A DNA stretch of 63,899 nucleotides, the filler included. It is 5 parts of 5 records of this genome, joined end to end, with 100 filler letters (N's around TTAATTAATTAA, not from the genome) between each part and the next. Parts side by side here need not be neighbours in the genome. Positions count along the whole stretch, not along the records: positions 39,136 to 58,451 come from SRR31156797_6383; 4 more parts are not named here. One strand, given 5' to 3'. Positions 8,232 to 58,451 of the stretch are shown piece after piece; the first letter of the stretch is position 1; each line of letters begins with the position of its first letter. The notes beneath the pieces are model-generated. The model saw nothing but the letters and a program-made list of their open reading frames with translations, searched no databases and was not told where the DNA came from. The position numbers and the translations under genes were made by a program.

Positions 8232-8331
8232 NNNNNNNNNNNNNNNNNNNNNNNNNNNNNNNNNNNNNNNNNNNNTTAATTAATTAANNNNNNNNNNNNN
8301 NNNNNNNNNNNNNNNNNNNNNNNNNNNNNNN
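8232..8331. other. Artificial contig spacer
   Basis: N44-TTAATTAATTAA-N44; the core places stop codons in all six frames. Confidence 0.99.
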
Positions 8332-39135: not shown

Positions 39136-39136
39136 G

Positions 39137-39256
39137 GATCGGCAGCGGCTGCGGCAGATGATCCGCAACGCTAAAAAAGAAAAAGCCGGGAAGGGCAAAT
39201 CCTCAAAATCCCAAAAAGCCCTTGAGGAGATGCTCAACAGTGCTTTGGCCCAATGA
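39137..39256 (+). CDS. yjgA: C-terminal fragment of ribosome-associated protein YjgA/DarP (DUF615)
   Basis: Translates DRQRLRQMIRNAKKEKAGKGKSSKSQKALEEML..., matching the DRQxLRQLIRNAKKE family motif. Confidence 0.75.
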   Translation, partial: DRQRLRQMIRNAKKEKAGKGKSSKSQKALEEMLNSALAQ

Positions 39257-39371
39257 GTGTTTTTGTTGGGATTTTTTTCAAAGCTAGGGAATCTGAAAAA
39301 GACAAGGGATCAATTCTTTCTTTATCACATTTATCTTTCGTTATGGGGTCTTTTATTTAAAGGAAATTTTT

Positions 39372-40604: not shown

Positions 40605-40608
40605 TCCG

Positions 40609-41559
40609 TTAAAAGGAATGGTTCAGCGTCAAGACATAAGAATTGTTCACAGGATTAATCCGGGCACTCAACCCAAAACTTTGATTCAAAATTTTTATTT
40701 GTTGAGACCTGTTATATTTATGGGCGGATGAGATAGATCCATAGATATTACCGGCATAGAATCCCGATTCAACAAAGGTGATAATGCCCCCTAAGGCGGG
40801 ATTGTCTTTGTTGAACGCATCATAGGCCGCATACATTAAGCCGGCATTAAGGCAGAATGTAACAAAGGCATCCTTATATCGTTCACAGTACAAAAATCCG
40901 CCTCCGGGGATGATCGCAAGGATTCCGGACAGGGCAGGGCTCTTGGCCGGAGCCTCTTTGGCATGGGCTATGGTGTCCAGTTGGGCAGGGATATTATATT
41001 CATCTTTGCTATCCGGGCTGATCATGGTTAAATATTGTTCGGCCTCATCTAGGCCGGCTTTGTTTAAATTCCGGAATTCCCTGATATGGATACGGGCCAG
41101 TTCCAAGTAGATTTTATCTTTTGTTTTGGTATCCTTGGTTAATTTCAAATAGTTTTGAAGCACCAATTGGGCATATCCGGCATTGCCCATGGCTAGAAAC
41201 GATTTACTCTGCATAAAATAGGATTCCCGGATAAATGAATTTTCATTTCCGGCTTCACGTATCAAGGTGTTAAAAAGGCGGGCGGCATCATTGAACTGAT
41301 CTGAATGGTACAATGATACGGCCGCTTTGAATTTTGCTTCTTCTGTTCGAGAATGATCCGGGAAAAAATGGGCAAAGCGTTTAAACTCGACCTGGGCTGT
41401 CATATAATCTTGTTCCCGGAACAATTTGTCCGCATATGAAAATTGGAGCCCGGGAGTTATAACCAGGCCGGGCAGTGGCCCGGCAACAGCATACCCATGC
41501 CCCAAAAGCGTCAGCAGAAAAACAATTAACAAAGGTTTGGATGTATTAAATGGGGTCAT
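40609..41559 (-). CDS. Exported TPR protein with C-terminal hydrophobic (TM2-like) region
   Basis: Signal peptide; TPR-like helices (EFKRF, A..K.A..LY); KSPALSGILAIIPGGGFLY motif. Confidence 0.7.
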   Translation of the reverse strand: MTPFNTSKPLLIVFLLTLLGHGYAVAGPLPGLVITPGLQFSYADKLFREQDYMTAQVEFKRFAHFFPDHSRTEEAKFKAAVSLYHSDQFNDAARLFNTLIREAGNENSFIRESYFMQSKSFLAMGNAGYAQLVLQNYLKLTKDTKTKDKIYLELARIHIREFRNLNKAGLDEAEQYLTMISPDSKDEYNIPAQLDTIAHAKEAPAKSPALSGILAIIPGGGFLYCERYKDAFVTFCLNAGLMYAAYDAFNKDNPALGGIITFVESGFYAGNIYGSISSAHKYNRSQQIKILNQSFGLSARINPVNNSYVLTLNHSF

Positions 41560-41939
41560 TGAGCCGGCGTGTCGGTGGTTTTTGTGTTGTCAAACCACCA
41601 GAAATCATTATGGCTGACAGGGTCAAACACATATTCATTATTTTTGATCCGGATGCGGGATGAAATATCAGCCTCATCCCTTCCGCAACGGACCAAACGG
41701 TCACAAGCCATTATCCAGCCAAGGGCCAGGCCGTGTTTTTTGATTGCCCGGTCAGCGTATTCTGAACAGGAGGGTGTCATGGGGCATCTGCCCCCGTCTG
41801 CCGCAGAAATGTGAGACTGATAAAACTCTATGAAAAAGTTCTTCGATGGCTTGTCCTCTGCCGCGGCCGGTAAGATGATACTAGTCATCAGCATTGAACT
41901 TAAAATCAAAAGAACGGGCAATTTAATTTTGGGTAACAC
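41556..41939 (-). CDS. YidD-family (membrane insertion efficiency / haemolytic domain) protein with signal-like N-terminus
   Basis: FYQSHIS, CPMTPSCSEY, AIKKHG and DRLVRC motifs. Confidence 0.8.
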   Translation of the reverse strand: MLPKIKLPVLLILSSMLMTSIILPAAAEDKPSKNFFIEFYQSHISAADGGRCPMTPSCSEYADRAIKKHGLALGWIMACDRLVRCGRDEADISSRIRIKNNEYVFDPVSHNDFWWFDNTKTTDTPAQ

Positions 41940-43608
41940 GAAGGACCTCCGCTATGGTTGTGATGCCTTGACGAACTTTTTCCAGGCCGTCCTGCCTTAA
42001 AGTCTGCATCCCTTTTTTTATGGCCGCATCTCTGATCACATTGGAATCCGAGGTTGCCAGGATTATGTTTTTCAACTCATCATCCAGATCAATGATTTCA
42101 AAAATGGCCTGTCTTCCTGAATATCCGGTATTAAAACATGCGGAGCAGCCGCCGGCCTTGTATACGGTTGTTCCCACCAATTGTTCTCCGGTTTCACCTA
42201 AGGATTTTACATCCTCGTATTTAAGCTGGTTTTTTTCACGGCAGTTTGTACACAGAACCCTGACCAGCCGCTGGGCTATTATGGTATTCACAGAGGAACA
42301 TATCAAATAAGGCTCAATACCAAGGTCAACCAGTCGCGTGACGGCTCCGGGCGCATCGTTGGTATGAAGGGTGGAAAACACCAAATGCCCTGTCAGGGCG
42401 GACTGAATTGCGATTGTTGCTGTTTCGATGTCCCGGATTTCCCCAATGAGGATGACATCCGGATCCTGCCGGACAATGGATTTCAGCCCCTTGGCAAAGG
42501 TGACGCCGGTTTTGGGGTTAACCTGTATTTGCCCGATCCGTTCTATGTTGTATTCAATAGGATCCTCAATGGTGATGATGTTTTTATCGGGAGAATTAAT
42601 TTCCGACAGCCCTGCGTAAAGGGTGGTTGTTTTTCCGCTTCCCGTCGGACCTGTAACAAGAACGATGCCGTGGGTCTGCCTGATAATCGTTTTTAAATGG
42701 GACAGCCTGGCCCGGGGCATTCCGAATTCAGACAATGAGAGAAGAGAGCCGGATTTGTTGAGCAGTCTCATTACCAGCCGCTCTCCAAATTCCGTAGGGA
42801 CTGTGGAAATCCGTAAATCGATTTCCTGGTCTCCTATTCTGACCTGGGCCCTGCCGTCCTGGGGGACTCGTTTTTCCGCGATATTCATTCCCGCCATCAC
42901 CTTAATTCTTGAGATGAGCGCGCTTTGGACTCCCTTGGGAGGGTGGAGTGTTTCATACAGGAGTCCGTCAATCCGATATCGGATTATCACCTGGTCATGA
43001 AACGGTTCAACATGAATATCACTGGCACTGGCTTTGACCGCCTGGGAGATCATATGATTTACCAGCCGGATCACCGGGGCATCACTGGTGTCGTCCAGAA
43101 GGTCCTCTATTTCTCCGATGTCCTCAAAGGAGGTCAGTTCATTGTCTTCCATATTTTCAACCAGTTGGCGGGCCTGGTCTTCAGAATGGTCATAAAAGGC
43201 GTTGATTGCAGATAAGATTTCCTGTTTAGGCGATAGGATTAATTTATAATCCTTTTTTTTCAGTATATGCATAAGATCATCGGGAGGACTAAGATCCGAA
43301 GGATCATTCACGGCTATTGCAAAAGCATTCTTCTTATGTGCCGGTACCAGACAGTATTTTTTAAGAAAGGATTTTGAAACCTGCCGGGTCCACTCTTTTT
43401 TTGGGGGGATTGAAATGGCCGGAGAATAATCAATGTTGTAGACCCCGGCCAAAGCCGTGAGAACGGAATGTTCAGACACCAGCTTGGATTTAACGGCCGC
43501 TTTGGTTAACCGGGTTCTGTTGTCCAACAGCAGATTGAGCAGTTTCTCCTTGTCTGCCCCGGATAAAGCCTCTTTTTCGGAAATGATGGTAACCAGTGTT
43601 TCTATCAT
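41923..43608 (-). CDS. gspE: Type II secretion ATPase E
   Basis: ASDIHVEP, GPTGSGKTTT, TIEDPIEY, RQDPDVILIGEIRD, STLHTND and a tetracysteine motif. Confidence 0.95.
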   Translation of the reverse strand: MIETLVTIISEKEALSGADKEKLLNLLLDNRTRLTKAAVKSKLVSEHSVLTALAGVYNIDYSPAISIPPKKEWTRQVSKSFLKKYCLVPAHKKNAFAIAVNDPSDLSPPDDLMHILKKKDYKLILSPKQEILSAINAFYDHSEDQARQLVENMEDNELTSFEDIGEIEDLLDDTSDAPVIRLVNHMISQAVKASASDIHVEPFHDQVIIRYRIDGLLYETLHPPKGVQSALISRIKVMAGMNIAEKRVPQDGRAQVRIGDQEIDLRISTVPTEFGERLVMRLLNKSGSLLSLSEFGMPRARLSHLKTIIRQTHGIVLVTGPTGSGKTTTLYAGLSEINSPDKNIITIEDPIEYNIERIGQIQVNPKTGVTFAKGLKSIVRQDPDVILIGEIRDIETATIAIQSALTGHLVFSTLHTNDAPGAVTRLVDLGIEPYLICSSVNTIIAQRLVRVLCTNCREKNQLKYEDVKSLGETGEQLVGTTVYKAGGCSACFNTGYSGRQAIFEIIDLDDELKNIILATSDSNVIRDAAIKKGMQTLRQDGLEKVRQGITTIAEVLRVTQN

Positions 43609-45581
43609 TTTGTTTTCCCGGTATTTTTTTGTCCTAGCGTATCAATTTTTTTAAAAAGACTGACCTCTCCTTTTTTGATGCTCGGTTTTAGGGATTCCTT
43701 TTTTGCATCGTATAGTTGTTTTGCTTCGGTGGGGTTTTTGATGACTCTAGGGGTTAGAAAAACATAGAGATTTGTCTTTTCTTCACCTTCATTTACGGTT
43801 TTAAAGGCCCATCCGAGACCGGGCAGATCTCCAAGGCAGGGGGTTTTATTTTCCGACCGGGTCAGGGTTTCGTCTATAAGCCCTCCGATTACAACCGAAT
43901 GGGAATCTTCTACAATAATAGTGGTTTCAATTTCACGCTTGAAGGTTGTCGGGCGGTCCGGACTGCTTTGATTGACAGTATCAAGTTTAGTGAGCTTCTG
44001 GTACACATCCAGCCGAACCAGTCGTTCTTTGGAAATCTGGGGCGTAATTTTCAGGCTGATTCCCACATCTTTGTATTCATACGAACTATAGGTCTCTGAT
44101 GATGATTCTGCAGCAGATCTCGTCTGGTAGGGGACGTTTTTGCCCACGGAAATCACGGCTTCTTCATTTTCCGTGGTCAAAATTTGGGGGGTGGCAAGGA
44201 TATTCACGTCTTCGTCGGATTGAAACGCATTTACAACAGCCTGAATATCCGGGAATGTGACCCCTCCGATATTGAAACTTTTACCCATAACTCCCAAAGA
44301 GAACCCCTTGGGCAGACTACCGTCGGAAGCAACGCCGCCAATATTGGCGTATCCGCTGTCTCCTGTACCGCCAAATCCCCCAAAGCCCACTTTTTCACCA
44401 CCGCTGAAAGATTGAGAGGTTTTCCATTCTGTTCCGATATTTAACCCTTTGGTGACGTTCACTTCCATAATAAGACACTCTATGAAAACCATGGCTCTCG
44501 GGATATCCAATTTGGCAATCACATCTTCCAACACCGGATAGTCTTCTTTCTCTGCCATGATGATCAATGAATTGGTTGCCTTGTCCGCATTGATATGCAC
44601 TGTTTGAGAAAGAATGGGGGCTTGTTTTTTCCCGGTTTTTTTATTATTTCCGGTTTTAGTCGGGATCTGTTGAAGCACCTTGACCATTTCTTCCGCAATA
44701 GCGTGTTCAAGATAATATACCCGGATGCGTTCTTCCCCTTTTGGTACCTGTTGATCCAAAAGAGCGACCAATTTTGTGATCCGCTCTGTCTCAACCTTTG
44801 ATGCAAGAAGAATGACGCTGTTTGTCCGTTCGTCTGCGGTAAGGTGGACCATAAGGTTTGAGTCCTTTTTCCCTTTTTCCTCTTTAACCCTTGCTGCAAA
44901 TACCGCAGAAAGGGTTTTAACAAGCTTTTCAGCATTGGCATTACGGATGGGAATAATGGAAATTTTTTTGCCGATATTGGGAATGTCAATGGAGCGGATT
45001 ATTTTAAGAAGCCTGTCAATGCTGGACAATGTCGCTGTCACAATCAGCATGTTGGTATCTTTGTAGGACAGCATAATACTGCCTTTGGGTAAAAGCGGCG
45101 CCAGCAGCGTTTTAAGTTCTCCCGAGTCCGCATATTCCAGGGGAATAAGCCTTGTAACCATCCTGTCTGCCGCTGTTTCCGGGCCACCGACAACCCGGGT
45201 GTCGATATTGTCTGACTTTGCGCTGGGAGCCGGGACTATTTTTATTACTTTTCCGGATGTCACCGTTGAAAAACCGTGGATTTCAAGCACGGATTCAAAT
45301 ACCTGAAACGCTTCTCCAATGGATATTTTCGTCGGTGAAATGACGGTAACCTTTCCTTTTACCCGGCTATCCAATACAAAATTTTTTCCGGTGAGCTTAC
45401 TGATGAATTTCACAAAGACCTTAATGTCCACGTTGTCGAAATCAATGGATATCCTGCCTTGGGCGGGCGCTTTTTCACATTGACCGGGGGCGGGATCAAG
45501 CAATATGCAGAAAGCCGGTAAAATCGTTAAAAGTATCAGAAAAGCAGAATGTTTTGAGAGCAAACTACGAAAACCGTGCAT
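43605..45581 (-). CDS. gspD: Type II secretion secretin D
   Basis: N0-N3 domains (DERTNSVI, DKATNSLII); secretin motifs PQILTTENEEA and PCLGDLPGLGWAF. Confidence 0.95.
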   Translation of the reverse strand: MHGFRSLLSKHSAFLILLTILPAFCILLDPAPGQCEKAPAQGRISIDFDNVDIKVFVKFISKLTGKNFVLDSRVKGKVTVISPTKISIGEAFQVFESVLEIHGFSTVTSGKVIKIVPAPSAKSDNIDTRVVGGPETAADRMVTRLIPLEYADSGELKTLLAPLLPKGSIMLSYKDTNMLIVTATLSSIDRLLKIIRSIDIPNIGKKISIIPIRNANAEKLVKTLSAVFAARVKEEKGKKDSNLMVHLTADERTNSVILLASKVETERITKLVALLDQQVPKGEERIRVYYLEHAIAEEMVKVLQQIPTKTGNNKKTGKKQAPILSQTVHINADKATNSLIIMAEKEDYPVLEDVIAKLDIPRAMVFIECLIMEVNVTKGLNIGTEWKTSQSFSGGEKVGFGGFGGTGDSGYANIGGVASDGSLPKGFSLGVMGKSFNIGGVTFPDIQAVVNAFQSDEDVNILATPQILTTENEEAVISVGKNVPYQTRSAAESSSETYSSYEYKDVGISLKITPQISKERLVRLDVYQKLTKLDTVNQSSPDRPTTFKREIETTIIVEDSHSVVIGGLIDETLTRSENKTPCLGDLPGLGWAFKTVNEGEEKTNLYVFLTPRVIKNPTEAKQLYDAKKESLKPSIKKGEVSLFKKIDTLGQKNTGKTK

Positions 45582-45589
45582 ATTGTTAT

Positions 45590-46441
45590 CTATTCCTTTT
45601 GTCCGCTGTAAACAAGTTCATGGGACCGTCCCCTTCTGAACATTGAAATCCGGATGTCCGATTCAGAATCAAGGTTGAGGGAGTGAAGGTCATGGGCGGT
45701 TTTGATTTTTCTGCCGTTTACACCCTCTATAATATCTCCGTTTTTTATGCCAAGTGCTTCAATCTCAGATCCCGGACGTATTCCGTAAATCAACACCCCG
45801 GCAGGTACTCCCTTCTTCAGGTAAGGCCTTGCCTTCATGGTTCCCATCAGTTCGTTTATATTTGATTGTGTTCCTTGGGCAAGAATTTCGGATGGTGGAT
45901 CAGGGGGGGGGGCGGCCGTGCTCACAGCCCCCTGAGCAGGAGGAGGGGCGTCTGCTGTATTGGCTTCGAGGATTTGATCCTTTCCCCTTACATTCAGCAC
46001 AACCTGGTTTCTGGTGATTTTTTTAATCTCAGCTCCCTGAATTCGATCCCCGACCTTGACCAGAGACTGGTTATGGTTGGCTTGATCCTCAATTACCGCC
46101 CAGCTGTCCGATGTGGTTTCTCCTGCCGCCGTCCCCCAAAGTATCAGTCTTAATTTGGTTTTTTCCGGTTTGGATTTAACCGGTTCCATGGCTTTATTAA
46201 TTGAGGATCTGTTTGTGGCCGCCTTGAAAAGGTTCCGTTGGAGAATGGAACCCATCTGTTTTTTTTCCGGATGTCTGCTGCTGACTTCCGCAGTCTTACC
46301 CGGGTTGGAATCCTGTGTCCGGATTTTTTGCTTTGCCATTGCATATTTGAAAGAAGGGGCGTCCGGGCGAATGAATTCAATCCCCTGGAATACAACAAAC
46401 ACCGCAAGGCCTATATTTAATCCCAGTAACAAGGCCTTCAT
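45590..46441 (-). CDS. gspC: Type II secretion protein C (HR + PDZ)
   Basis: N-terminal TM; LWGT..AVIED HR domain; PDZ-like LGIKNGDII; positioned before gspD. Confidence 0.85.
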   Translation of the reverse strand: MKALLLGLNIGLAVFVVFQGIEFIRPDAPSFKYAMAKQKIRTQDSNPGKTAEVSSRHPEKKQMGSILQRNLFKAATNRSSINKAMEPVKSKPEKTKLRLILWGTAAGETTSDSWAVIEDQANHNQSLVKVGDRIQGAEIKKITRNQVVLNVRGKDQILEANTADAPPPAQGAVSTAAPPPDPPSEILAQGTQSNINELMGTMKARPYLKKGVPAGVLIYGIRPGSEIEALGIKNGDIIEGVNGRKIKTAHDLHSLNLDSESDIRISMFRRGRSHELVYSGQKE

Positions 46442-46977
46442 ATTTTTTTCCCCTTTGGGGTCAGTGTCTGGACTTCAATAACAGCGTCCAGAAATTTTTT
46501 TTCTTTACCGGATTTATCAAGCAAAAGATAGGTTATACGGATCCCTTCTTCCGACTCCACCTTTTTTAAAAAAATTAAAAACTCTTTGAGTACAATTTTC
46601 TTGAGTTTGAGTTTTACAGAAGACAGGTCATAATCGCTGTTTTTTAAAATTTTTTTTGAGGGCTGCATATAGTCGATATTATTTTTAATGCCAGTGCCCG
46701 AAGTTTGCTGGTCTATAAAAGAAAACAAGGTGAATTTTCGGTCCCGTTTTTGTATGAAACCACTATCTTTGTCCGGGGAGGGCTTAAGGCTCCGGTATTC
46801 TTTTTCCAGAAGCCGGATTTTATCCAAGGCTTCTATTTTTGCCGCCAATACATTTTGCAGATCTGCCTTCTGGTCGTAGGCAGGCAGATAAATGAACTGA
46901 ACAACAATAAAAACAAGAAAGAAAAATCCACCGCCCAGCACCGTTATTTTTTCCCTTGAAGAGAGTCTATCCATCAT
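46438..46977 (-). CDS. gspM: Type II secretion protein M
   Basis: LSSREK followed by a TM and coiled coil; positioned after gspL. Confidence 0.78.
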   Translation of the reverse strand: MMDRLSSREKITVLGGGFFFLVFIVVQFIYLPAYDQKADLQNVLAAKIEALDKIRLLEKEYRSLKPSPDKDSGFIQKRDRKFTLFSFIDQQTSGTGIKNNIDYMQPSKKILKNSDYDLSSVKLKLKKIVLKEFLIFLKKVESEEGIRITYLLLDKSGKEKKFLDAVIEVQTLTPKGKKI

Positions 46978-48428
46978 AGCTCCACGATAAATTTAAACCG
47001 GACATGATGACCGGTTTTATCCGATTTGGCACTGTTTATATTGACGGTTTTGAAGCCAGGGGCCTTTTCCATAAGGCTTTTTATTTTATCCACATCATTA
47101 AAATTTGTTGTGCTGCCGGTTATAACCAGTCGATTATTGTTGAATCCCAACCTTGTTATTTCCATATCGATTGGTGGCGGAATCCGGCTGGACAAATCAG
47201 AGAGTATTTTTAAAATGCCCGTGTGATTATTGGCCCGCCATGCAATGTCTTCCGCCGAATTTGTTTTTCCTTCCCTGGCTTTTTTAACTTTGGACTCCAT
47301 AAAAAGTAATGGCGCCTGGATTGGTTTCCGGTGGGGCCGGGGAAAGGTCTTTTCATAAACGGCAACGGCCTCTTGATGAACCTGGGAGATATTTTCCTTT
47401 AAAACAACAGTTTGACGGTGGAGATGGGCAAGGTTTAAGCTAAAAATCATAAACACCAGGCAGGTAAGGGTCAAAAGCCTGTTTTTGTGCCGCCCGAAAA
47501 AAGAATCTGCCCTATAGCGTCCAACACAAAAATTAAACATAAACGGCAGGGAAAGGTTTAAGTTTTTGGGCCAGAGTTCCATCTCCTGTGTTTCCATAGC
47601 CCCGGCAAACCTTATGTCATGATTGGCTGACGCCACTGCCTTATGAATCTGCTCCTGTATAACCTGACAATTTCCGGGAACAGAGAATTTTATATCCAGG
47701 GCGGTAAAGACCTTCTTGTTTAAGCCGGCCCGGATGTCGGCACCGGCCAGGGTCCTGTGGACTGCTTCAACCAATGCCGGATAATCAATCTGTGAACCGT
47801 CGGGCCCCTTAATAAAACCAGCCAGAGATCTTATGACCAAAGGCTGTCTGTCAATGATCAAAGTCAGCGTGGTCTCCTCCGGGGCCATATGGACGTGGAG
47901 TATATTCGTTAACTTTCTTTGGTCTGCCAGCAACGCCATTGCATGTGTGCATCCCCTCGGTATCATCATCTTTGGGGAAATTTTCCGGGATGCCAGGCCT
48001 GAAAAAATCTCTTCTACTCTTTCTTCTGCCAGGCTGCCGGACAGAACCAGGGATTGGTCTTTTTTAAACTGCAGGTTGAGAATATGAAAGTCCAAGAGCG
48101 TTTCGGTTTCAGGAAAAGGATATGATGATTTAAGTTCAAACGACAGGACCTTCTCAATCTTTTTTTTATGATTAAACGGAAAGCTGTTATGCCTGAACCA
48201 TACCCAGGAGGACGGAATCGTCACAAGGGCGTGATCACACCCCGACAAACGATCCTCTTCAAATAGATGGGCCAGTGCACGTTGGAACAACGAAGAGGTG
48301 TGTGCCTCATCTTCGCCTGATAATGTGTCGTAGTCTATGACAGAAAACGGACCGATTGATCCGGCAGTTCCTAGGGCTGCCGATATGCCTGTGTCATAAA
48401 TATTTAGGTATAAACAGGGCTTTGCCAC
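46974..48428 (-). CDS. gspL: Type II secretion protein L (PilM/PilN-like)
   Basis: Cytoplasmic actin-like region (FPFNHKKKIEKVLSFEL), TM, and PilN-like C-terminus. Confidence 0.8.
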   Translation of the reverse strand: MAKPCLYLNIYDTGISAALGTAGSIGPFSVIDYDTLSGEDEAHTSSLFQRALAHLFEEDRLSGCDHALVTIPSSWVWFRHNSFPFNHKKKIEKVLSFELKSSYPFPETETLLDFHILNLQFKKDQSLVLSGSLAEERVEEIFSGLASRKISPKMMIPRGCTHAMALLADQRKLTNILHVHMAPEETTLTLIIDRQPLVIRSLAGFIKGPDGSQIDYPALVEAVHRTLAGADIRAGLNKKVFTALDIKFSVPGNCQVIQEQIHKAVASANHDIRFAGAMETQEMELWPKNLNLSLPFMFNFCVGRYRADSFFGRHKNRLLTLTCLVFMIFSLNLAHLHRQTVVLKENISQVHQEAVAVYEKTFPRPHRKPIQAPLLFMESKVKKAREGKTNSAEDIAWRANNHTGILKILSDLSSRIPPPIDMEITRLGFNNNRLVITGSTTNFNDVDKIKSLMEKAPGFKTVNINSAKSDKTGHHVRFKFIVEL

Positions 48429-49541
48429 CTAATCGTCCTTTTCTATTTGAAGAATCCTGCATGACCATTCACCAGATATTTTATCTTTGGTCCTGTGTAT
48501 CAGGGCCGTAAGGGTTGTCCTGACTTGATTGACGGTTGACTGGGACCTGACGCTGAACAGATCACTATCATATCGTGCCACACGAACTAAATCGGATTTC
48601 TCTTTTTCAGACAGTTCTATAACCTGTGTCACCCACCCCTTGTCAAGGGAATTGGTATAGATATCCCCCCCTTCGGCCTTTTCTTTTCTAAAGCTTGCAA
48701 GCTCTTCTGCCTGCTCTGATGCATGCAACGGCAACAGAGCCCTGAGCACCTCCGGGGGAGCGGTGTTGATGTTTATCTTTCCCGGGAACCTATACGTGTC
48801 CCGAGACATATTCTCAGTCTCTATCCCATGTACCGTAATAAGATTTTCCGGAATTATGTTTTCAAGATCAGTATCCGGCTCAGGATCATCCTGATTTATT
48901 CTGAACAGATCCGGGGTAATGCCTTTGACCATAAAAATTTCTGAAATATGGGTAAAGGGTCCGTTTGTACACCGGTATGGGGGATCCAGAGAAAGATAAT
49001 AGTCGGATTCCGCACCGGAGAGTCCGGAAACCGCATCGTCATCCCGGCTGTCGAGCCAATCTTTAAGGCAATTTGCCAAGGCCTCCGGATCCTCGGCCAG
49101 AGGGTCGAAAAACCGTTTCCATATCCGGAATTGATCCGGATTCAATTCCCGTCCCGGGTATTCCTTTATGAGGGAATTAATCTGAATTTTCCCAAGTTCA
49201 TCCCGGATTTCCAGTATGAGGTCGTCCTTGCTATACCCCAAATTCTGAACTGCCCGGGCCAGTTTTTCCGGCCTGGCCCAGTCTTCCTGAACAGAATCCG
49301 TTTCAGATTCGGCGGCATCATTTGTCAGAATTGCCACTGCCAGATGGATACCGGCCATGGACTGCTCTTTGGCCATAAAACCATCTGCATTATGGCCGGA
49401 TGTCAGGGCGGATCTGCCGGTTGTTTTGGCCAGTTCAAACCCCAGTATCAAAAGAACCGACATCACAGAAAGCACAATCAATAGCGCCATGCCCGAATGA
49501 TTGTCCCAAAAAAAAGGGTGAAAGCGATAGGGATTTTTCAT
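48429..49541 (-). CDS. gspK: Minor pseudopilin K
   Basis: G|MALLIVL cleavage site; DELGKIQIN, DWLDSRDD and ININTA motifs. Confidence 0.9.
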   Translation of the reverse strand: MKNPYRFHPFFWDNHSGMALLIVLSVMSVLLILGFELAKTTGRSALTSGHNADGFMAKEQSMAGIHLAVAILTNDAAESETDSVQEDWARPEKLARAVQNLGYSKDDLILEIRDELGKIQINSLIKEYPGRELNPDQFRIWKRFFDPLAEDPEALANCLKDWLDSRDDDAVSGLSGAESDYYLSLDPPYRCTNGPFTHISEIFMVKGITPDLFRINQDDPEPDTDLENIIPENLITVHGIETENMSRDTYRFPGKININTAPPEVLRALLPLHASEQAEELASFRKEKAEGGDIYTNSLDKGWVTQVIELSEKEKSDLVRVARYDSDLFSVRSQSTVNQVRTTLTALIHRTKDKISGEWSCRILQIEKDD

Positions 49542-50233
49542 TCTTCTATTATCCTGCTGACGGGAATATTGACAAGGGTTTCAACTATATTCTCAGGGGT
49601 GTCGCTTTTACTCACCCGGATCTTTATCTGTGACGGTAAGGAAAAATTAAAATCTTCATCCCCACTATCCCATGTCTGATGCTCATTGCCTTTATTATCA
49701 TAAAAGATCAGGTCAAATTCCTGGACATCCATGAACAGAACGGGGGCTGAACATTTTTTTTCAAAATCGTTTTCATTATAGGTTTCAGGATAGCTGTCCG
49801 CCCGGTGAATATGGATGCCTTCCCCGTGGCGTACAGCATAATAGGTAATGCGGGTGATTCCGGGTGGATTGTGATACGGGTTTGAAAATTGTACCTTATT
49901 GGTACTGGTAAAGCTTAAAAAAGAAACGGATGCACCGTTGATGTCTTCTTTTCCCGCCGTAAATTGAAATTTTGATGTATCCCCGGATTTGTCTGACGCT
50001 TGTTGAAACCGAGGCGGCTGAAGGACAAAAACCTGTTCCAGATCATCTGCCATGATATTTAATGCAAGCCCGTAATTTTGCCGTCTTTGGTTATGGGCCT
50101 TTATCATGTCTCCTGAAGATGTAAATGCATTAAATGATGAAAACAGCGTCAGCATCAGAACTGAGAATATAGTCAATGCCACCAGTACTTCCACAAGGGT
50201 AAAGCCCGTGTTTTTTTTGATTCTAGCGGGCAT
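49538..50233 (-). CDS. gspJ: Minor pseudopilin J
   Basis: Class III signal G|FTLVEVLVAL; gene order. Confidence 0.85.
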   Translation of the reverse strand: MPARIKKNTGFTLVEVLVALTIFSVLMLTLFSSFNAFTSSGDMIKAHNQRRQNYGLALNIMADDLEQVFVLQPPRFQQASDKSGDTSKFQFTAGKEDINGASVSFLSFTSTNKVQFSNPYHNPPGITRITYYAVRHGEGIHIHRADSYPETYNENDFEKKCSAPVLFMDVQEFDLIFYDNKGNEHQTWDSGDEDFNFSLPSQIKIRVSKSDTPENIVETLVNIPVSRIIEE

Positions 50234-50636
50234 TCATGTACCGCCATGTTTTAAAGGTAAGGCTGCGGCGTTTACCCGGCCCGTAAATGATCATGGTGAT
50301 TTTTTTCAGCTTTGACGATTCCCGGTCGGCCAAGATTGATTCCCAGTCCCCTTCATCAATACCGTCCCTCACCTCACAGGCGATTGAATAGTCTCTAAAG
50401 TATCCGTGGTACTCTTCCGCTAACCGGTCAGGGTCGAATCCGTTTTGTTCAAGTTCAGATATGGTCTGCCGGGCCAGGAGAAAGGATAAGGATTTAAAAT
50501 CAGCCGCTTCCGATAACGCTGCGGTCGAAGACTGAAGCTTGAACAAAGCACCGAAAACAATTGCCAGAACTGCGAGGCTCACCATGATTTCTATCAGGGT
50601 AAACCCTTTTTCAGATACAGTCATCGAAGAATACAT
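50223..50636 (-). CDS. gspI: Minor pseudopilin I
   Basis: Class III signal G|FTLIEIMVSL; gene order. Confidence 0.82.
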   Translation of the reverse strand: MYSSMTVSEKGFTLIEIMVSLAVLAIVFGALFKLQSSTAALSEAADFKSLSFLLARQTISELEQNGFDPDRLAEEYHGYFRDYSIACEVRDGIDEGDWESILADRESSKLKKITMIIYGPGKRRSLTFKTWRYMNAR

Positions 50637-51096
50637 ATCCTTTAATGATTTCTACATTTGCAAAGAAAGGATGAAGCTTTAAGGTAAATTCTTCATCCCC
50701 GGATCTCATCTGAATCAAGGCCATGTCCGAGTAGCCCTTATTGTAAAAACGTATGACGGTCTCTTCGGGGGCGTTTTGGCCTTTTACCTCAATGTGGTCG
50801 ATGGATAAATTTAAAAGCGGCTCTCTTTTTTGGGGTGTAATGTTGAGACTTTCCTGGCTGTCTTGGGTGATCCAAACCTCTCCGGACAACTGGTCAATAT
50901 GGAGTAAAAAAGTTTTGTTTTCCTGAATGGCTTTTTGTTTAAGAGACGCCATCAGTTCAGAGATGGTCCGGTGGCCATCGACAGTACTTTTTATATTTAA
51001 ATACGGAACCGCCCCAAAAGCTGCAATCGATAAAATGGTCAGTACCACCAATAGTTCCAGCAGGGAAAATCCGGATATGTAACCGTTTTTATTCAA
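50611..51096 (-). CDS. gspH: Minor pseudopilin H
   Basis: Class III signal G|FSLLELLVVL; gene order. Confidence 0.82.
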   Translation of the reverse strand: MNKNGYISGFSLLELLVVLTILSIAAFGAVPYLNIKSTVDGHRTISELMASLKQKAIQENKTFLLHIDQLSGEVWITQDSQESLNITPQKREPLLNLSIDHIEVKGQNAPEETVIRFYNKGYSDMALIQMRSGDEEFTLKLHPFFANVEIIKGYVFFDDCI

Positions 51097-51532
51097 GCTC
51101 CCAGCTTTTAATGTCTAAGTTCTTCCCCTGGCCGCCCGGCGCTCCGTCTGCTCCATAAGACAGGATATCAAATTCACCGTGCGTACCAGGCGATATATAT
51201 AAATAATCACGGCCCCAGGGGTCTTTGGGCAGCTTTTTTTTATCCAGGTATCCGTTTTTGCTCCAATTGTGCGCTTCAGGTTCCGTCCCTGGTTTTTCGA
51301 TCAAGGCTAGAAGCCCCTGCTCACTGGACGGATACGTTCCATTGTCTAAGCGGTACAGCTTCAAACTTGTTTCAAGCGCAGCAATGTCCACCTTTGCTTT
51401 AACCGTTTTTGCCTCATCGGTCCTCCCCATATACCGGGGAACTATCATCCCGGCCAGGATACCGAGAATCACCACTACAACCATTAATTCTATAAATGAA
51501 AACCCGTCTTCATTTATTGCTGCCGGTCTCAT
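51089..51532 (-). CDS. gspG: Major pseudopilin G
   Basis: G|FSFIELMVV; YPSSEQGLLAL, DPWGRDY and SYGADG motifs. Confidence 0.95.
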   Translation of the reverse strand: MRPAAINEDGFSFIELMVVVVILGILAGMIVPRYMGRTDEAKTVKAKVDIAALETSLKLYRLDNGTYPSSEQGLLALIEKPGTEPEAHNWSKNGYLDKKKLPKDPWGRDYLYISPGTHGEFDILSYGADGAPGGQGKNLDIKSWELE

Positions 51533-51642
51533 AAAATTTTCCTTAAGCTATTAATTATGGAGGAAGGCTGTGAAGGAAAGACTCAGCCCTGTCCATCCGA
51601 AATATTAATGATAATTGGTGCTATTGATTAGTACAGGCACAG

Positions 51643-51835
51643 ATAAAAATCAATCAGGGATTCCCATTAATTCAATATTTTTTTGATCTTCAAGGGATTT
51701 TCCTGATTGGCGTTTCTTTTTTTCCATTTCAGTCCCAACGGGATTGTCAATATTTTTTTTAAAATAAAAGTTTCGTAATTTTAGTGGGTTGAGAAAAAAG
51801 AGCGAAAACTAAGGGAAACCCTGATTGATTTTTAT
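51643..51835. promoter_or_regulatory. Mirror-image 23-bp sites in the divergent intergenic region
   Basis: ATAAAAATCAATCAGGGATTCCC (51643-51665) matches the reverse complement of GGGAAACCCTGATTGATTTTTAT (51813-51835) at 22/23; partial copy AAGGGATTTTCCTGATTG at 51692-51709. Confidence 0.75.
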
Positions 51836-51956
51836 TTTTGGGCGTAATAGTTAAGCACTCTGCCAGGATTAATTATAGTTCGGCATGAGGTATTATAAAC
51901 AATTGTTGTATTACTGATTTGATGTTGACTTGAATGATGAAATAAGGAGTAACAAG

Positions 51957-52427
51957 ATGAAATTATTGACCAAATGGATGGCAGGGATTTTCTTTGTTTG
52001 TGTGACAGCAACAGCTGCCTTGGCCCAGGACGGCGGGATTACCATAGATGCCAACGGAAATACGGGAGTCGGAACCGAAACGCCAACAGCAACGCTGGAC
52101 GTCAACGGTGATACAAAGATACAGGGCGATTTGACCATGACAGGTAAAGTAAAGCAGTCCCAGGCTCCGGCCGAGGGCAATGACCTTGTTAATAAATCCT
52201 ATGTCGATGCCGCAGATACGGTAAAATTCAATGCACTTCAGTCTCAAATAAACTCTATTGCAAATGGCGTGTTAGGCCCTGTAAAAGGTCGTCTCAAATG
52301 TACAAGCGGGTACAAACCTTTTGGTATTACCCACGGATGTTACACATATACTTTATGTATAAAACCGGGGTATTGGCATAGCTATCGCAAGCCAAGATGT
52401 GGCAGCGGAGGAGGAAGCGGTAAATAA
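51957..52427 (+). CDS. Small secreted fibre/adhesin-like protein
   Basis: AAGGAG SD; signal peptide ending ALA|Q; GNTGVGTETPTATLDVNG and NDLVNKSYVD motifs; 4-Cys C-terminus. Confidence 0.75.
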   Translation: MKLLTKWMAGIFFVCVTATAALAQDGGITIDANGNTGVGTETPTATLDVNGDTKIQGDLTMTGKVKQSQAPAEGNDLVNKSYVDAADTVKFNALQSQINSIANGVLGPVKGRLKCTSGYKPFGITHGCYTYTLCIKPGYWHSYRKPRCGSGGGSGK

Positions 52428-52549
52428 AACCGATTTCCGGTCTTTATTTGTTCATATAATCCGGCATCGAATTTATTTGAATCCCTGTTGGAGATGTGTA
52501 GTTTGCCGATTAAAATTCCATTGACTGTCGTATTCTTAGAGGAACGTCT

Positions 52550-53611
52550 ATGTGTGCCAGGTTGCCCAGCTTTTTGATCTGTTTTTTGTTTTCATGTTAT
52601 CCGGTTTTTGCCCAGGACCTTATATTGACCGGCCCGCAGACTTCGGGATGGCAGTATATCGAAAACCGTATATTGTCCCGGGGTGACACCCAAATCGGTG
52701 ATGGGATTGATCTGGATTTGATGTCCAAAACAGGGGTGAGGTTGGCGCCTGGGTTTAAAGTTCTGCCGGGTGGGGTTTTTAAGGCCTTTGTCAGCCCGGA
52801 CAGCGACGGGGACACCATCCTTGACCTGGCAGAAAAGCGTTCCGGGTGCATGAATCATCTATCGGCGGATACCGACGGGGACGGACTGGCGGACAATGAA
52901 GAAGACACCAACGGCAACGGTCGCCATGAGATGGAATTCAACGAAACCAGCGCCTGCAAACTGGATACCGACGGGGATAATATCGGAGATAAGTGGGAAA
53001 TAGACAACGGGTTTAATCCTTTGGTGCCCGATGCGGACCAGCATTTGATTTTGACGGGTAGTCCTGCCTCCGGCTGGCATTACATTAACGGTATCATAGT
53101 CTCCAAAGAGGCCACTACCATTAATCCGGGCGTTTACCTCGATCTGGTCGCCCAGGTCCGGGTGAAATTCAATCCGGGCTTCAGAGTATTGCCCGGGGGG
53201 AGGCTCAGGGCTGTAGCAAGTCCGGACTCTGATGGTGACCGTATTCATAACATCGTGGAACGGCGGTCCGGCTGCATGAACCCCGACCTTGAGGACACTG
53301 ACGGCGACGGCCTCCCCGACAGCCAGGAAGATGCAAACCGCAACGGCATCCTTGAGGAACTGAACGAAACCAGCCCCTGTAATGCAGATACGGACGGAGA
53401 TAAGATGAATGATAAGTGGGAAAAGGACCATGGCTTGGATCCCCTGGTCGATGACGCCGGCCTGGATGCGGACAATGACGGATTGACCAATTACCTGGAA
53501 TATTATTTCAAGGTTTCCGACCCCCAAGACCCCGACAGTCTTCCACCCAGAGGTTCCTATTACGAGTATGACGAATTGGGCCGAATCAAAAAAATAGTCC
53601 GTATCAAATAG
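52550..53611 (+). CDS. Secreted protein with two 142-aa repeats (beta domain + DxDGDG Ca-binding repeats) and a C-terminal YD repeat
   Basis: Signal ending VFA|Q; PGFKV/PGFRV motifs; many DTDGDG/DSDGD motifs; ends YYEYDELGRIKKIVRIK. Confidence 0.85.
   Translation: MCARLPSFLICFLFSCYPVFAQDLILTGPQTSGWQYIENRILSRGDTQIGDGIDLDLMSKTGVRLAPGFKVLPGGVFKAFVSPDSDGDTILDLAEKRSGCMNHLSADTDGDGLADNEEDTNGNGRHEMEFNETSACKLDTDGDNIGDKWEIDNGFNPLVPDADQHLILTGSPASGWHYINGIIVSKEATTINPGVYLDLVAQVRVKFNPGFRVLPGGRLRAVASPDSDGDRIHNIVERRSGCMNPDLEDTDGDGLPDSQEDANRNGILEELNETSPCNADTDGDKMNDKWEKDHGLDPLVDDAGLDADNDGLTNYLEYYFKVSDPQDPDSLPPRGSYYEYDELGRIKKIVRIK
52616..53457 (+). repeat. Intragenic tandem duplication with 426-nt period
   Basis: DLILTGPQTSGWQYI at 52616 aligns with HLILTGSPASGWHYI at 53042; SPDSDGD, RSGCMN and NETS.C..DTDGD are shared. 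Confidence 0.9.
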
Positions 53612-53629
53612 ATCTTTCAGGAGTCGAAA

Positions 53630-56600
53630 ATGAATACGCTGGTATCTGCACTCTCAAAATGGATGGTTTCTCTTCTCATTTTCCTTCTTATTATTATTCC
53701 CGCACGGGCCGGGGCGGATGATGCCGGAACCGGTTATGGCGATGTTGCTGTGGAATTGGTGGAAGAGGATTTGTCGGAACAGGGATGGATTGAAGACATA
53801 GAAAGCACGGGCGAAGAAGAGGAAAAAGACCCTGGAGAGGGTGAGGCGGCACCGGAACGCCTATTAAAACCTTCGGCCATGGAAGCGGCCGCTCCCATGA
53901 TGGCGGAGGCGTCACCAGAACCAGAACCGCCCAGCCTTGAAGAATCCGTCTTTGACACAGGTGCCACTATTACCGTTCCGGAAATTTCCGTGGGCATCGG
54001 GGCCGCTGTTCTGGAATACCCCATCCAGGTGCCGGCGGGCCGGAATGGCCTGACACCGGCGGTAATACTCGGCTATAATTCTTCCAGAAGAAACAGCAGG
54101 GCCGGGGTTGGCTGGGACCTGGGCATCTCTTCCATCAAGCGTTCCATTAAGCGGGGAACATGCTATACCTGCAATAATTTTACCTACAACGGCGAAGAAA
54201 TATTTCCGGTCAGCGTGGACTCCAGCGGATACGGCACCTATCGACCGGAGAAACAGCAGGCCTTTTCTATCATTGAATTCAACACCGATAATTCCTGGTC
54301 GGTCACCTTTAAAGACGGTACCGTCTATGAATTCGGCCCTGGCCCGGAATGCCGGCAGGACAACGGCCAAGGTACATTCCAATGGCTGCTGTCAACCGTA
54401 AGGGATTCTAACGGCAACACCTTGACCTACACTTACGCCAAAGACCATGACCAGGTATATCTGTCCATCATCCGATACCTCAATTATTACACCCTCTCTT
54501 TTTATTATGAAAGCAGGCCGGATCAGATTATTGATTACCGTTCAAAATTTAGAGTGGTGACGGCCAAACGCCTTAAAACCATAGAGGTTCGTTCCAACGA
54601 TCATCAGATCCGGGCCTATGATCTGGCCTATACCCAAAGCGCCAATACCGGGCGCTCCCTTCTGACCCGGATCACCCGCTACGGATCGGATTATTATCTG
54701 GATGGGGAGAACCAGATTACCGGGGGATCAGCCCTGCCGTCTACGGAAATAACCTACGCCCACGACCAGACTCCCTTTGCCGCCTCCCCGGAAAAAATAT
54801 CGGATCTGTCCAAAGGACAGCATTTTTTCAATACCTATATCCATCCCATGGTCACCGGAGACTGGAACGGGGACGGCCGCATGGATATAGGCCGGGCCGG
54901 TGCTGACGGCATTGATTTTTATATCTCCGGCAAAAACGGTTTCCAGACCATGGATTCCCTGTCCGACCTGTCCGTTGGTCAGGGATACCCAAATGCCAAT
55001 GCAAGCCCCGTCCTCACCGGAGACTGGAACGGAGACGGGAAAACCGATTTAGGCCGGTCCGGTAGTTCCGGGATCATCTTTTATACAGCCAAAGGTGCCG
55101 GCTGGGAGAGATATCCAAAGCTGAATCACCTGTCCGGATACCAAGGGTATAAGAACCAAAGCTCATTTCCGGTTTTCACCGGGGACTGGAACGGAGACGG
55201 GAAAACCGACATGGGCAGAGTCACGTCAAATGCTGCGGTCTTTTATGTTTCCACCGGCAGCGGCTGGCGGCGTTATAGCGGATTCTCTGACCTGGCTGCT
55301 CAGCAGGGCTATATCAATATCAGCGACCACCCGGTTTTTACCGGGGATTTTAACGGAGACGGCAGAACCGATGTGGCCCGGGTAAGCAATACGGGGATTA
55401 AGGCCTACACATCAACAGGAACCGGGTTCCGATATTACGGGACCCTATCCGCCCTGAGCGCCCAACAGGGGTTTCATAACCAAGGTGTGTTCCCCCTTGT
55501 CACCGGCGACTTTAACGGTGATGGGATGACGGATATTGCCCGGGCCGGTTCGAACCAGATTCTTACCTATCTGTCTTCAGGTAGCGGATTTATCAAAGGC
55601 GGCCGGATAAATGACCTGACCTGGAGCCAGGGATGCAGAAATTACAATACCCATCCAATATTCACGGGGGATTTTAACAACGACGGGCGCATAGATATCG
55701 GCCGGGTCAAAGAGGGTTCCCTGGCCATTTATGTGTCAACTGGTAAGGGCTTTACCTCTTACAAAAACCCTGGCTCCAGACTCAGTCCGGCCCAGGGGTT
55801 TGCCACCAATCATGAATATCCCCTTGTCACCGGGGACTTCACCGGTGACGGCAGAACCGGCATTGCCCGGGCATCGGCCTCAGGGGTTTGTTTTTACTCC
55901 CCCCAGGGGGATGCCGATGACCTGATGCACCGGATTTCAGCCTCGTCGGGCAGTATCACCGACATTGAATACACCCCCTCGTCGAACTGGGCCAATATTC
56001 GTCTGCCCATGTTGCTTCAGACAGTGTCAAAGCGGACTGTAAACGACGGCCTGGGCAATACCTCTGCCACCGAGTATTCTTACTCCGGCGGCTTTTACGA
56101 CTATGAAGACCGGGAAGTGAGGGCCTTTGAGTCCGTGATAAAAATCAATCCCGAAGGTACTATAGAAACCCGGTTATTCCACCAGGACAGGTTCCTTGAC
56201 GGTCGTAAAATAAGCACCGAATACAAATCCCCGGACGGCACCCTGCTGTCCAAGATCGAACATAACTGGGAGAGCACCCCATACGATAGCCGCACGGCAT
56301 TTATCCGGCTTAATTCTCAAAAGGAGACCCAATACGACAACGGAAACCAGTCGTTCCGGCAAGAGGCGTATACCTATGATCCGGAGCATGGCAGTATCTT
56401 GACCTCCACGGTGTCCGGCACCAACCTTACCGACTCCGTCACCATGAGTTACGACTATGACTACTACGGATCCGGCCAGAGTTACCCCCTTTGTATCATT
56501 CGAGAAACTCTCACAGGCGCTGCCGGCATGGTTCGCCAGACCCTTTACGCCCATGAGCTGCACTCAGGGAATATGCTCTCCCGGGAACAGGTCAATGCCG

Positions 56601-58451
56601 GCGGCATTAACCCTGTCACCACCTATTCCTATGACAGCCACGGAAATCTCGTCTCACTCCGGGACCCCAAAGACAATGTTTATTTCTTTGAGTACGATTC
56701 CGCTATAGACACCTGGCCGGTGCGCATTGAAAAGCCCTCCACGGGAATCCACACCCATGTGGTCCGATACCCGGATATCGATCTTCGGTTCGGCAAGCCC
56801 CTTTCTTTTGAAAATGAGAATGGCTTCCAAACGGTGTACGCTTATGATGTTCATGGAAGACTAACCCGATTGGACCATCCGGACAACGGCCAGGAAAAGT
56901 TTATATTTGACGATGAATCTATGCCTAGGTCCCAGACCCGGCGGGTCAAGGAAAGTGATGACGCCTTCATTGACACAGTCACCTACACCGACGGCCTGGG
57001 CCGCACCGTCCAGACCGTGGCAAAATCCAAGGAAGGCTACGCAGCAACCCTGTTCACCTTTGATCTCATGGGACGGGAAGCCTGTACCAAAGGGCCTTTT
57101 TTTATACCTTCCCCTGCATTTTTATCTGCCGATCATACCAGCCTGTCTGCCGATCCCGGCACCGTCAATGCCGGTGCCATCACGACCTGGGTGAGAAATT
57201 ATTATGATTACAAAAGCCGGATCACCAGACTGGAACAATCCGGGGGGATTGATACGCTTTTTGTCCACAATAATCTCAACATAACGGTCACCGACCCGGA
57301 CGGCCACAGCAAATCCCAGGTACTGGATATCCTGGGCCGGGTCATTAAGGTTATTGAGCACGGCCCCAGGGACTTTCCCGTCACCTATAGCTATACACCG
57401 GCAGGGGACCTGACAAAGGTCTCCCGGACCAACCCGGCCACGGGCAATCCCATTGACAACATCGTGGTCTACAACACCCTGGGCCAGAAAATCTCCATGA
57501 CGGATCCGGACATGGGGCAATGGCATTATACCTATGATTTAAACGGCAACCTTGAAACCCAGACCGACGCCCGGAACATCACCCTGACCTTTGCCTACGA
57601 TGAGCTGAACCGCCTCGTCCGCAAAACCTATCCCGACACCAGCTTTGCCTCATGGGCCTATGACTCAGGCACCAATGGTACAGGCCAGCTCTACGAGAAG
57701 TCCAATGCCAATGCCGTCACCCGGTATACCGCCTATGACCCGGCAGGCCGCCTCCAGTCAGAAATCCGGACCGTTGACGCCCAGACGGTGAAATTCGACT
57801 ATACCTGGGACATTGCCGGACGCCCGGCGTCAAAGGCCGTAACCTACAATAACACCCCCTTTAAAGCCCTGGCCTATGAGTTTTATCCCGGCACCCGCCT
57901 CCTGGCCCGGGTCAAACAGGAAGACAACCGGTCCGTCACCGAGATCACCCAGTACACGCCCCAGGGCAAAATCGTATTCCTGAACCATTTAAACGGAACA
58001 ATTGCCAATTATATTTACGACTATGCCACTTCACGTTTGATCCTGATCCATTCCTACAATCTCAGTGAAACCATCATGGACAAGGGCTATACCTATACCA
58101 AAGCCGGGGATGTAAAGACCGTTACGGACAACCGGACCGATACAACCCGCACCTATGCCTATGACCATAACCACCGCCTCATCTCCGAGCAGACATCCGG
58201 CGCCGGTGCCGCGGCCGGAACCCGTGTGCAAGTCATTGACCTTAGTTATGGAGAGGCTCCGGGGCAGCCCGTACATGCCCCAAAAGAAGTCCGGATCAAC
58301 GGAGCCCTGACCGAGTATGCCTATACGGCAGCGGGTAACAGATCCTTTAAAAATCAAGGAATAACCGCTACTAATTACGACTCAAATCCCGACAATATGA
58401 TCTCAAAGATATCTGCCGGCAGCACTGAGACCCTATTTTTCTATGATGCGG
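53630..58451 (+). CDS. Secreted SpvB + FG-GAP propeller + RHS/YD repeat protein (TcB-TcC-like fusion), 3' truncated
   Basis: Signal ending ARAGA; SpvB motif PIQVPAGRNGLTP..LGYNS...GVGWDL; seven GD(W/F)xxDG repeats; YSGGFYDYEDRE midN-like motif; YD repeats (DPDMGQWHYTYDLNGNL, YDELNRL). Confidence 0.92.
54800..55900 (+). repeat. Seven 54-aa beta-propeller blade repeats
   Basis: Repeat anchors at 54853, 55015, 55177, 55339, 55501 and 55663 (162-nt period) and 55828 (+165). Confidence 0.92.

Follow-up and report, generated by a model that had tools for sequence, protein, structure and literature searches.

Why does a small protein of no known family stay beside the gene of an RHS protein? The question is raised by P0001, the 353-aa product of an open frame at 52550..53611 (+ strand), and by P0002, the RHS partner encoded directly downstream. 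Both genes lie in a 63,899-nucleotide (nt) stretch of DNA, here called the window, within the part that derives from record SRR31156797_6383 (positions 39,136 to 58,451). Its frame, translation and homologues and an AlphaFold2 (AF2) model characterize P0001 as a secreted, two-module calcium-binding protein with a C-terminal YD-like hairpin tail. The original prediction held that this lone hairpin, 18 nt before the SpvB-RHS gene, docks into the RHS shell in trans; frame, translation and motif confirm the hairpin and its place. The same tail ends unrelated carrier proteins, and the gene that follows is nearly always of the RHS family. Functional coupling between carrier and RHS protein, and the modularity of the arrangement, are strongly supported by these sequence comparisons. 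We propose that Sec-exported RHS toxins have interchangeable binding subunits and that the tail serves these as a portable docking tag; whether the coupling is physical and runs through the tail is, in our judgement, evenly balanced.

The tail, GSYYEYDELGRIKKIVRIK, spans residues 335–353 (53552..53608, + strand) and is delimited by invariant residues, predicted strands and recurrence on other carriers. It is the exact C-terminus of P0001, which ends ...PRGSYYEYDELGRIKKIVRIK ahead of a stop codon at 53609-53611. Its YYEYDELGRI fits the YD motif Y-x-Y-D-x-x-G-R-[LIV]. The strict form of the motif used here, [YF]x[YF]DxxG[RNQK][LIVMP], occurs four times in the 40,207 residues of all window frames of at least 100 aa: three times in the RHS protein and once in the tail of P0001. 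In the AF2 model, the hairpin consists of strands 335–340 and 346–352, with a predicted local distance difference test (pLDDT) score of 82–89 over the block.

Homologues of P0001 were found in Desulfobacter and in metagenome-assembled genomes of Desulfobacteraceae. The original prediction staked itself on conservation of the tail, and conserved it is: in all 22 aligned homologues, most of which have one module and a length of about 212 aa, the tail is both the most conserved stretch and the exact C-terminus. Y338, Y340, D341, G344, R345, K347 and R351 are invariant in 22 of 22. The consensus, of about 19 residues, is G-x-[YFH]-[YFI]-x-Y-D-x-x-G-R-[IV]-x-x-[IV]-x-R-[IV]-x-COOH. Across 11 loci, 340 synonymous and 419 non-synonymous codon differences were counted. 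The conserved residues are written in differing codons, which indicates selection on the peptide and not on a DNA repeat or a recombination site.

The tail also recurs on proteins unrelated to P0001. We searched 1.84 billion representative proteins with a profile built from the last 45 residues and examined the best 150 matches. Twenty-five of these match the whole profile, and the other 125 match its thrombospondin type 3 (TSP3) part only. The whole-profile matches end 0–13 residues from the C-terminus of proteins of 121–2598 aa, which make up at least 25 clusters at 50% identity. Further carriers came from 401 Desulfobacterales genomes, searched with a homologue query, and from metagenome contigs, searched with a tail-centred alignment; a scan of genome contigs with a whole-protein alignment was dominated by TSP3-repeat proteins, and none of its 75 retained loci had the tail.

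The carriers differ widely in size and in architecture. There are small ones (166 and 219 aa), beta-helix proteins (1509 and 2244 aa), a 1156-aa protein with discoidin (F5/8-type-C), NosD and Big_5 domains, and a 914-aa protein that is IgGFc_binding-like. In a 370-aa laminin-G (Laminin_G_3) carrier, no TSP3 repeat stands ahead of the tail. Seven further large carriers from genomes measure 964–2096 aa; one architecture among them combines CarboxypepD_reg, cadherin/Big_9, PKD, PASTA and FG-GAP_2 domains, another has five Laminin_G domains with fn3 and PKD, and another is of the beta-helix/NosD kind. The domain before the tail varies accordingly: it is a TSP3 repeat in most carriers, an Ig/PKD-like end at L097, L158 and L159 (L-numbers denote loci other than that of the window), and a non-TSP3 end at L115.

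Two sets of proteins carry similar elements in other settings. P0027, P0056 and P0085 are secreted TSP3-repeat proteins in which two YD repeats directly follow the signal peptide or open the fragment, perhaps as N-terminal counterparts of the tag. L098:1024-4716, L099:3401-7096 and L100:3437-8005 encode large proteins, with no Pfam families or with DUF5977, in which ...YYEYDELGRI[SNK]... stands at the C-terminus or close to it. Directly downstream of each is a DUF6443-containing protein of 1676–2004 aa. This is possibly a parallel arrangement in another lineage.

What lies downstream of a tail? In the 401 Desulfobacterales genomes, the tail profile matches 27 places, 20 of them with the hairpin and 7 with TSP3 only. 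At 19 of the 20 hairpin places, the next co-oriented gene belongs to the RHS family. Sixteen of these partners are SpvB-type (15 recognized by hidden Markov model (HMM) and one, split over two frames, by eye); the remaining three have DUF6531 and RHS repeats. At L147 (G277:C5), a tail-bearing 186-aa gene is followed by SpvB-like sequence split over two frames; an assembly error may account for this, or the RHS gene may be frameshifted or in decay. The picture is the same for the nine metagenome loci whose tail is truly C-terminal: eight have an RHS gene downstream, and at the ninth, L089, the contig ends first. Seven more carrier/RHS pairs, taken from two protein searches, share a contig to judge by its length, and one of these pairs has consecutive locus tags. 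Small genes are inserted after the carrier at two loci: at L091:782-1162, a PDDEXK_3 nuclease-fold (PD-(D/E)XK) gene sits between carrier and RHS gene, and at L089:718-1083, a 23S_rRNA_IVP four-helix-bundle gene follows the carrier before the contig end.

The two genes of a pair are close together and show signs of translational coupling. In related loci, the gap between carrier and RHS gene ranges from -4 to about 80 nt, and three of the junctions are ATGA overlaps. In the window, the ATG of P0002 is at 53630, 18 nt past the stop of P0001, and the spacer (53612..53629, + strand) contains GGAG at 53620-53623 ahead of the start codon. Both products have signal-peptide-like N-termini.

The reverse survey started from the RHS side. 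An SpvB-domain query matched 46 of the 401 Desulfobacterales genomes, and 30 loci were read. At 11 of the 30, the co-oriented gene upstream closes with a YD-like hairpin, the feature that the original prediction proposed to look for upstream of SpvB-RHS fusions. Seven of these were found by regular expression and four by eye; three of the latter represent a variant ending LFEYDxFGR[IL]VFKQ[IV]ALEP.

A mechanism that would fit these observations is as follows. P0001 would be one of a set of interchangeable Sec-exported carriers, adhesin- or lectin-like and often Ca-binding, whose sole common element is the tag. The tag would fold as a beta-hairpin patterned like one YD repeat and, after export, would join its carrier non-covalently to the RHS protein encoded directly downstream. 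This partner, of the SpvB/FG-GAP or the DUF6531 type, would likewise be Sec-exported. The hairpin would add onto, or insert into, the YD beta-sheet of the shell at a part common to both partner types, and the result would be a two-component toxin consisting of a binding subunit and a cargo-holding RHS cocoon. Joining of the sheet is suggested because the tag has the YD pattern and because the shell built from two chains, TcB and TcC, provides a precedent. Beta-sheet addition to the shell is the likeliest mode of coupling, which we advance tentatively, with the chances somewhat against it. Because the tag has DUF6531 as well as SpvB/FG-GAP partners, the site of docking should lie in the shared shell and not in the propeller. 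The surface-binding role of the carriers is, like the binding itself, something that we infer.

An ESMFold2 prediction of a complex of P0002 residues 112–1040 with P0001 residues 296–353 had a score of 0.00 and a mark of 0.34 and counts neither for nor against docking: it used no alignments, the fold predicted for the partner itself was uncertain, and the cut shell has an artificial free edge.

Several results weigh against physical docking through a YD-type tag. The first concern the identity of the tail. Neither RHS_repeat (PF05593; E up to 0.01) nor YD_repeat_2x/TIGR01643 (E up to 0.1) matches anywhere in P0001, and when tails were scanned alone, one of four gave RHS_repeat, at E 0.21 and 12.5 bits against a cut-off of 22. 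One repeat alone does not have the length that these models require, so the tail falls below HMM significance; it is called a YD repeat on the strength of its motif and the predicted hairpin. The docking step is proposed from conservation and gene order, and the two partner architectures mean that the docking site must be in a part that they share.

The second concern gene pairing. At L157, where the tail is weak, the next protein has no Pfam match in the 472 aa seen. A sample across the phylum, 401 Desulfobacterota genomes, yielded four matches only, and two of these, L165 and L166, have C-terminal tails of two consecutive YD repeats. Downstream of the L166 tail is a DUF6531/RHS gene, and downstream of the L165 tail is a transglutaminase-core-like protein, an exception to the RHS rule. 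Viewed from the RHS side, a carrier is missing upstream of 19 of the 30 SpvB-type RHS genes read, which means that the shell can generally do without the tag. The proposal that the hairpin is a modular way to attach an adhesion module was therefore borne out in part: functional coupling and modular design are well supported by conservation and gene pairing, and the idea that the hairpin completes the shell is the weaker part. "Decorates" fits these numbers better than "completes".

The third concern descent. A quick maximum-likelihood tree was made from RHS N-terminal parts, with support from the Shimodaira–Hasegawa-like approximate likelihood ratio test (SH-aLRT) only. One clade has the canonical TcB N-terminus (AGVDKSGV...SLPSGPGSIEGLGESF), and none of its seven loci has a carrier. 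In the other clade, 17 loci with a carrier and 11 without are patchily distributed, with at least five changes, and 42 of 500 label shuffles performed no worse. The seven loci of the separate, canonical clade (AGVDKSGV..ISLPSGPGSIEGLGESF) are L116, L118, L119, L121, L123, L124 and L130; L118 and L121 have, instead of a carrier, an upstream overlapping frame ending ...VRVVPVF.GTGK. No fused carrier-RHS protein was found, which is weak evidence either way: a search for longer proteins with the tail region gave two, a 658-aa carrier and a TSP3-only protein. The strict tail motif has no internal occurrence in the listed protein sets. No tail-like motif precedes the SpvB start in 120 RHS homologues, in 64 of which that start was located, and relatives without a carrier showed no cis hairpin for which the tag could substitute.

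Could the tail be addressed to something other than the RHS protein? It might be recognized by an export or surface-assembly machine that both proteins share, for example the type II secretion system (T2SS) or an outer-membrane factor not yet known, with the genes adjoining through co-secretion. P0001 and P0002 look Sec-exported and are thus candidate T2SS substrates; just upstream, in divergent orientation, is a complete T2SS cluster (39372-51532), and a position at the very end of a protein is typical of sorting signals. Yet T2SS adjacency is not seen at L085 or L088, the other loci with annotated neighbours. A tail of this kind is lacking in the N-terminal 450 residues of the RHS partners, whose C-termini were not systematically checked. 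No curated C-terminal sorting-signal family (PEP-CTERM, the C-terminal domain of type IX secretion and others; NCBIfam with E up to 0.1, and Pfam) matches P0001, and the tail is charged and amphipathic, unlike a membrane anchor. A shared export signal also leaves the likeness to YD repeats and the RHS adjacency in 19 of 20 cases unexplained. We consider it unlikely.

Alternatively, the tail might act within the carrier, capping the last domain or pairing with the tails of other carriers to form oligomers, the link to RHS genes then reflecting a common pathway. In the AF2 monomer, the block of linker and hairpin has a pLDDT of 85–90, which may mean intramolecular packing, and beta-hairpins are capable of dimer pairing. 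Against this, the domains that directly precede the tail are of very different kinds, so the tail does not belong to a single conserved domain fold, and self-association does not explain the near-obligate RHS neighbour. A role confined to the carrier thus has a small chance, like that of a shared export signal. That the tail is a functionless leftover, either the first YD repeat of a split ancestral RHS protein or a recombination by-product 5′ of RHS genes, is very improbable: one or two YD repeats do occur elsewhere in some secreted TSP3 proteins (P0027, P0056, P0085), which shows that YD and TSP3 repeats are shuffled together, but a leftover would decay, whereas this tail shows strong protein-level conservation with free synonymous change and an exact C-terminal position across its 25 or more clusters of unrelated carriers.

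A docking tag on exported binding subunits invites comparison with known RHS systems. In Tc toxins, TcB and TcC, separate chains, jointly build one continuous YD shell. P0002 resembles TcB in its domain order, and it weakly matches the TcdB1 and YenB chains over the SpvB start. The arrangement differs from the TcB-TcC cocoon in that B and C are one gene here, as in full-length P0002 homologues. Moreover, the second chain here supplies one hairpin rather than hundreds of residues, and it is adhesin-like rather than a toxin carrier. TcA, a separate protein with binding domains, is joined non-covalently to the RHS cocoon and acts as the receptor-binding partner of BC; the carriers would be like it if they, too, are separate binding proteins joined non-covalently. 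In contrast to TcA, they have no TcA-type domains and show no sign of a translocation channel, and TcA binds the TcB propeller, which the DUF6531-type partners of the tail do not have. No TcA-type Pfam family is present in the 13 other genes at 39372-51532 or in the open reading frame (ORF) at 51930-52427, a search that covers the 19-kb contig only and not the genome.

Type VI secretion system (T6SS) Rhs effectors likewise combine an RHS cocoon with accessory mounting elements, namely an N-terminal plug, PAAR or VgrG, and Eag chaperones. Those effectors are cytoplasmic, have no signal peptides and are mounted in cis via PAAR or VgrG, whereas both proteins here look Sec-exported and would be coupled in trans via a C-terminal hairpin. 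In the accessible part of a preprint (bioRxiv 10.1101/2024.02.26.582050), N- and C-terminal plugs of the shell are described, and not trans-acting tags. Full-text literature searches listed no description of C-terminal YD tags or of carrier genes upstream of RHS genes, subscription journals being mostly outside their scope.

Short terminal elements that dock diverse subunits on a common partner are known from chaperone-usher donor-strand complementation and from dockerin-cohesin pairs; in the pilus, docking is by an added beta-strand. The analogy is one of principle only, as there is no sequence or family relation and no sign of an incomplete fold in the RHS partner. CglD and MtsD of Myxococcus have the DxDxDG Ca-binding repeats in common with P0001. 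With 76 bits against a family cut-off of 400 for CglD and 33 against 800 for MtsD, P0001 shares the repeats and is not a member of either family.

Few polymorphic toxin containers are as widespread as RHS/YD-shell proteins, and their delivery is understood only for those mounted on the T6SS and those dependent on TcA. SpvB/FG-GAP/RHS or DUF6531/RHS proteins that have signal peptides but lack a known partner are encoded by many environmental bacteria. If the tail is a docking tag, it would supply a concrete partner and an interface, a genome rule for finding binding subunits (look for the tail), and possibly an example of a minimal beta-hairpin docking module. It would also explain why P0001 remains next to the RHS gene. 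A wider proposal, possible but rather doubtful, is that the tail is a general plug-and-play tag that mounts any secreted binding protein on the outside of a Sec-exported RHS cocoon, giving the sulfate-reducing Desulfobacterales a binary toxin system with exchangeable targeting subunits. Were this so, Tc toxins would have a TcA-independent counterpart, and the many signal-peptide RHS proteins without a T6SS link would have a first delivery logic. The one- and two-hairpin tags of P0027, P0056, P0085, L165 and L166 and the YD-like ends of L098–L100 would then follow the same principle.

How is the rest of P0001 built? Residues 1–21 (52550..52612, + strand) form a signal-peptide-like N-terminus, read from the sequence by eye as MCARLPSFLICFLFSCYPVFA then QD. 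All homologues begin with a short basic stretch followed by a hydrophobic stretch ending in A, directly before (Q/E/D)DL. Module 1, residues 22–162 (52613..53035, + strand), is a 3-coathanger-like PGF beta domain followed by TSP3-like DxDxDG repeats, as judged from the internal repeat, NF045639 and AF2 strands in 24–81. Module 2, residues 164–303 (53039..53458, + strand), is a copy of module 1, recognized by the internal repeat and the alignment, and it is the module kept by the single-module homologues of about 212 aa. The two-module structure of a PGF beta domain plus DxDGDG-type repeats, which had been noticed beforehand, holds, with 57% identity across 141 aa (E 2e-53). In each module, the PGF motif sits in the small beta domain that opens it, and the DxDxDG repeats come after. 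The last TSP3-like repeat and the linker (DADNDGLTNYLEYYFKVSDPQDPDSLPPR) occupy 53459..53551 (+ strand), where the homologue alignment shows D302, D306, D308, D310, N314, E317, P325, S330 and P332 to be kept.

Database models recognize these parts incompletely. The NCBIfam model NF045639, "3-coathanger stack domain", is passed marginally (28.0 bits against a cut-off of 26) by a partial match of 21 residues (62–82) to profile positions 26–46 of 49. Pfam TSP3_bac (PF18884) scores 16.3 bits on P0001 against a gathering cut-off of 25; many homologues and other carriers exceed that cut-off, and the DxDxDG motifs are invariant in the homologue alignment. The TSP3 parts of the NCBIfam CglD (76 bits) and MtsD models give partial matches. 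The AF2 model of P0001 has a mean pLDDT of 88. Foldseek matched it to no solved fold in the PDB at E up to 0.001, and the ESM Atlas gave no usable match.

The partner gene P0002 (53630..58451, + strand) encodes, according to Pfam and TIGR01643, a signal peptide, an acidic linker, an SpvB domain, FG-GAP repeats, TcdB_toxin_midN and RHS repeats. Its frame of 1625 codons runs into a contig joint at 58452, and the end of the RHS core and the toxin domain are outside the window. Pfam places SpvB at 124–275, FG-GAP_3 in six stretches, TcdB_toxin_midN at 735–848 and RHS_repeat in five stretches. The TcB/TcC-like order of SpvB, FG-GAP propeller repeats, TcdB middle/N region and RHS repeats is thus present. 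The closest full-length homologue is P0125, of 1916 aa and 74% identity. Between signal peptide and SpvB domain, at 53720-53990 (residues about 30–120), lies the acidic low-complexity linker; many relatives of P0002, with and without carriers, have comparable ones. In contrast to this linker, the tail of P0001 is strongly basic (RIKKIVRIK).

Upstream of the pair, the T2SS cluster comprises GspG, three further pseudopilins, K, an L-like gene, M, C, the secretin D, the ATPase E, F, a YidD-like gene and one unknown gene. Linkage to a T2SS was considered as a conserved feature and set aside on the evidence of L085 and L088. The T2SS cluster and the carrier gene are separated by an ORF at 51930-52427 (+ strand; 165 aa) that has a signal-peptide-like start and matches neither Pfam nor NCBIfam. 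Its identity of 14–22% to the ORFs upstream of the carriers at L085, L086 and L088 is unconvincing, and a conserved third gene upstream of the carrier was not accepted. Linkers of the form N-run / TTAATTAATTAA / N-run occur at window positions 8276, 30321, 39080 and 58496, where 0.01 would be expected by chance. These four linkers show that separate contigs are strung together in the window and that gene order across the joints has no meaning. The helicase fragment at 58654, beyond such a joint, is unrelated to the RHS gene.

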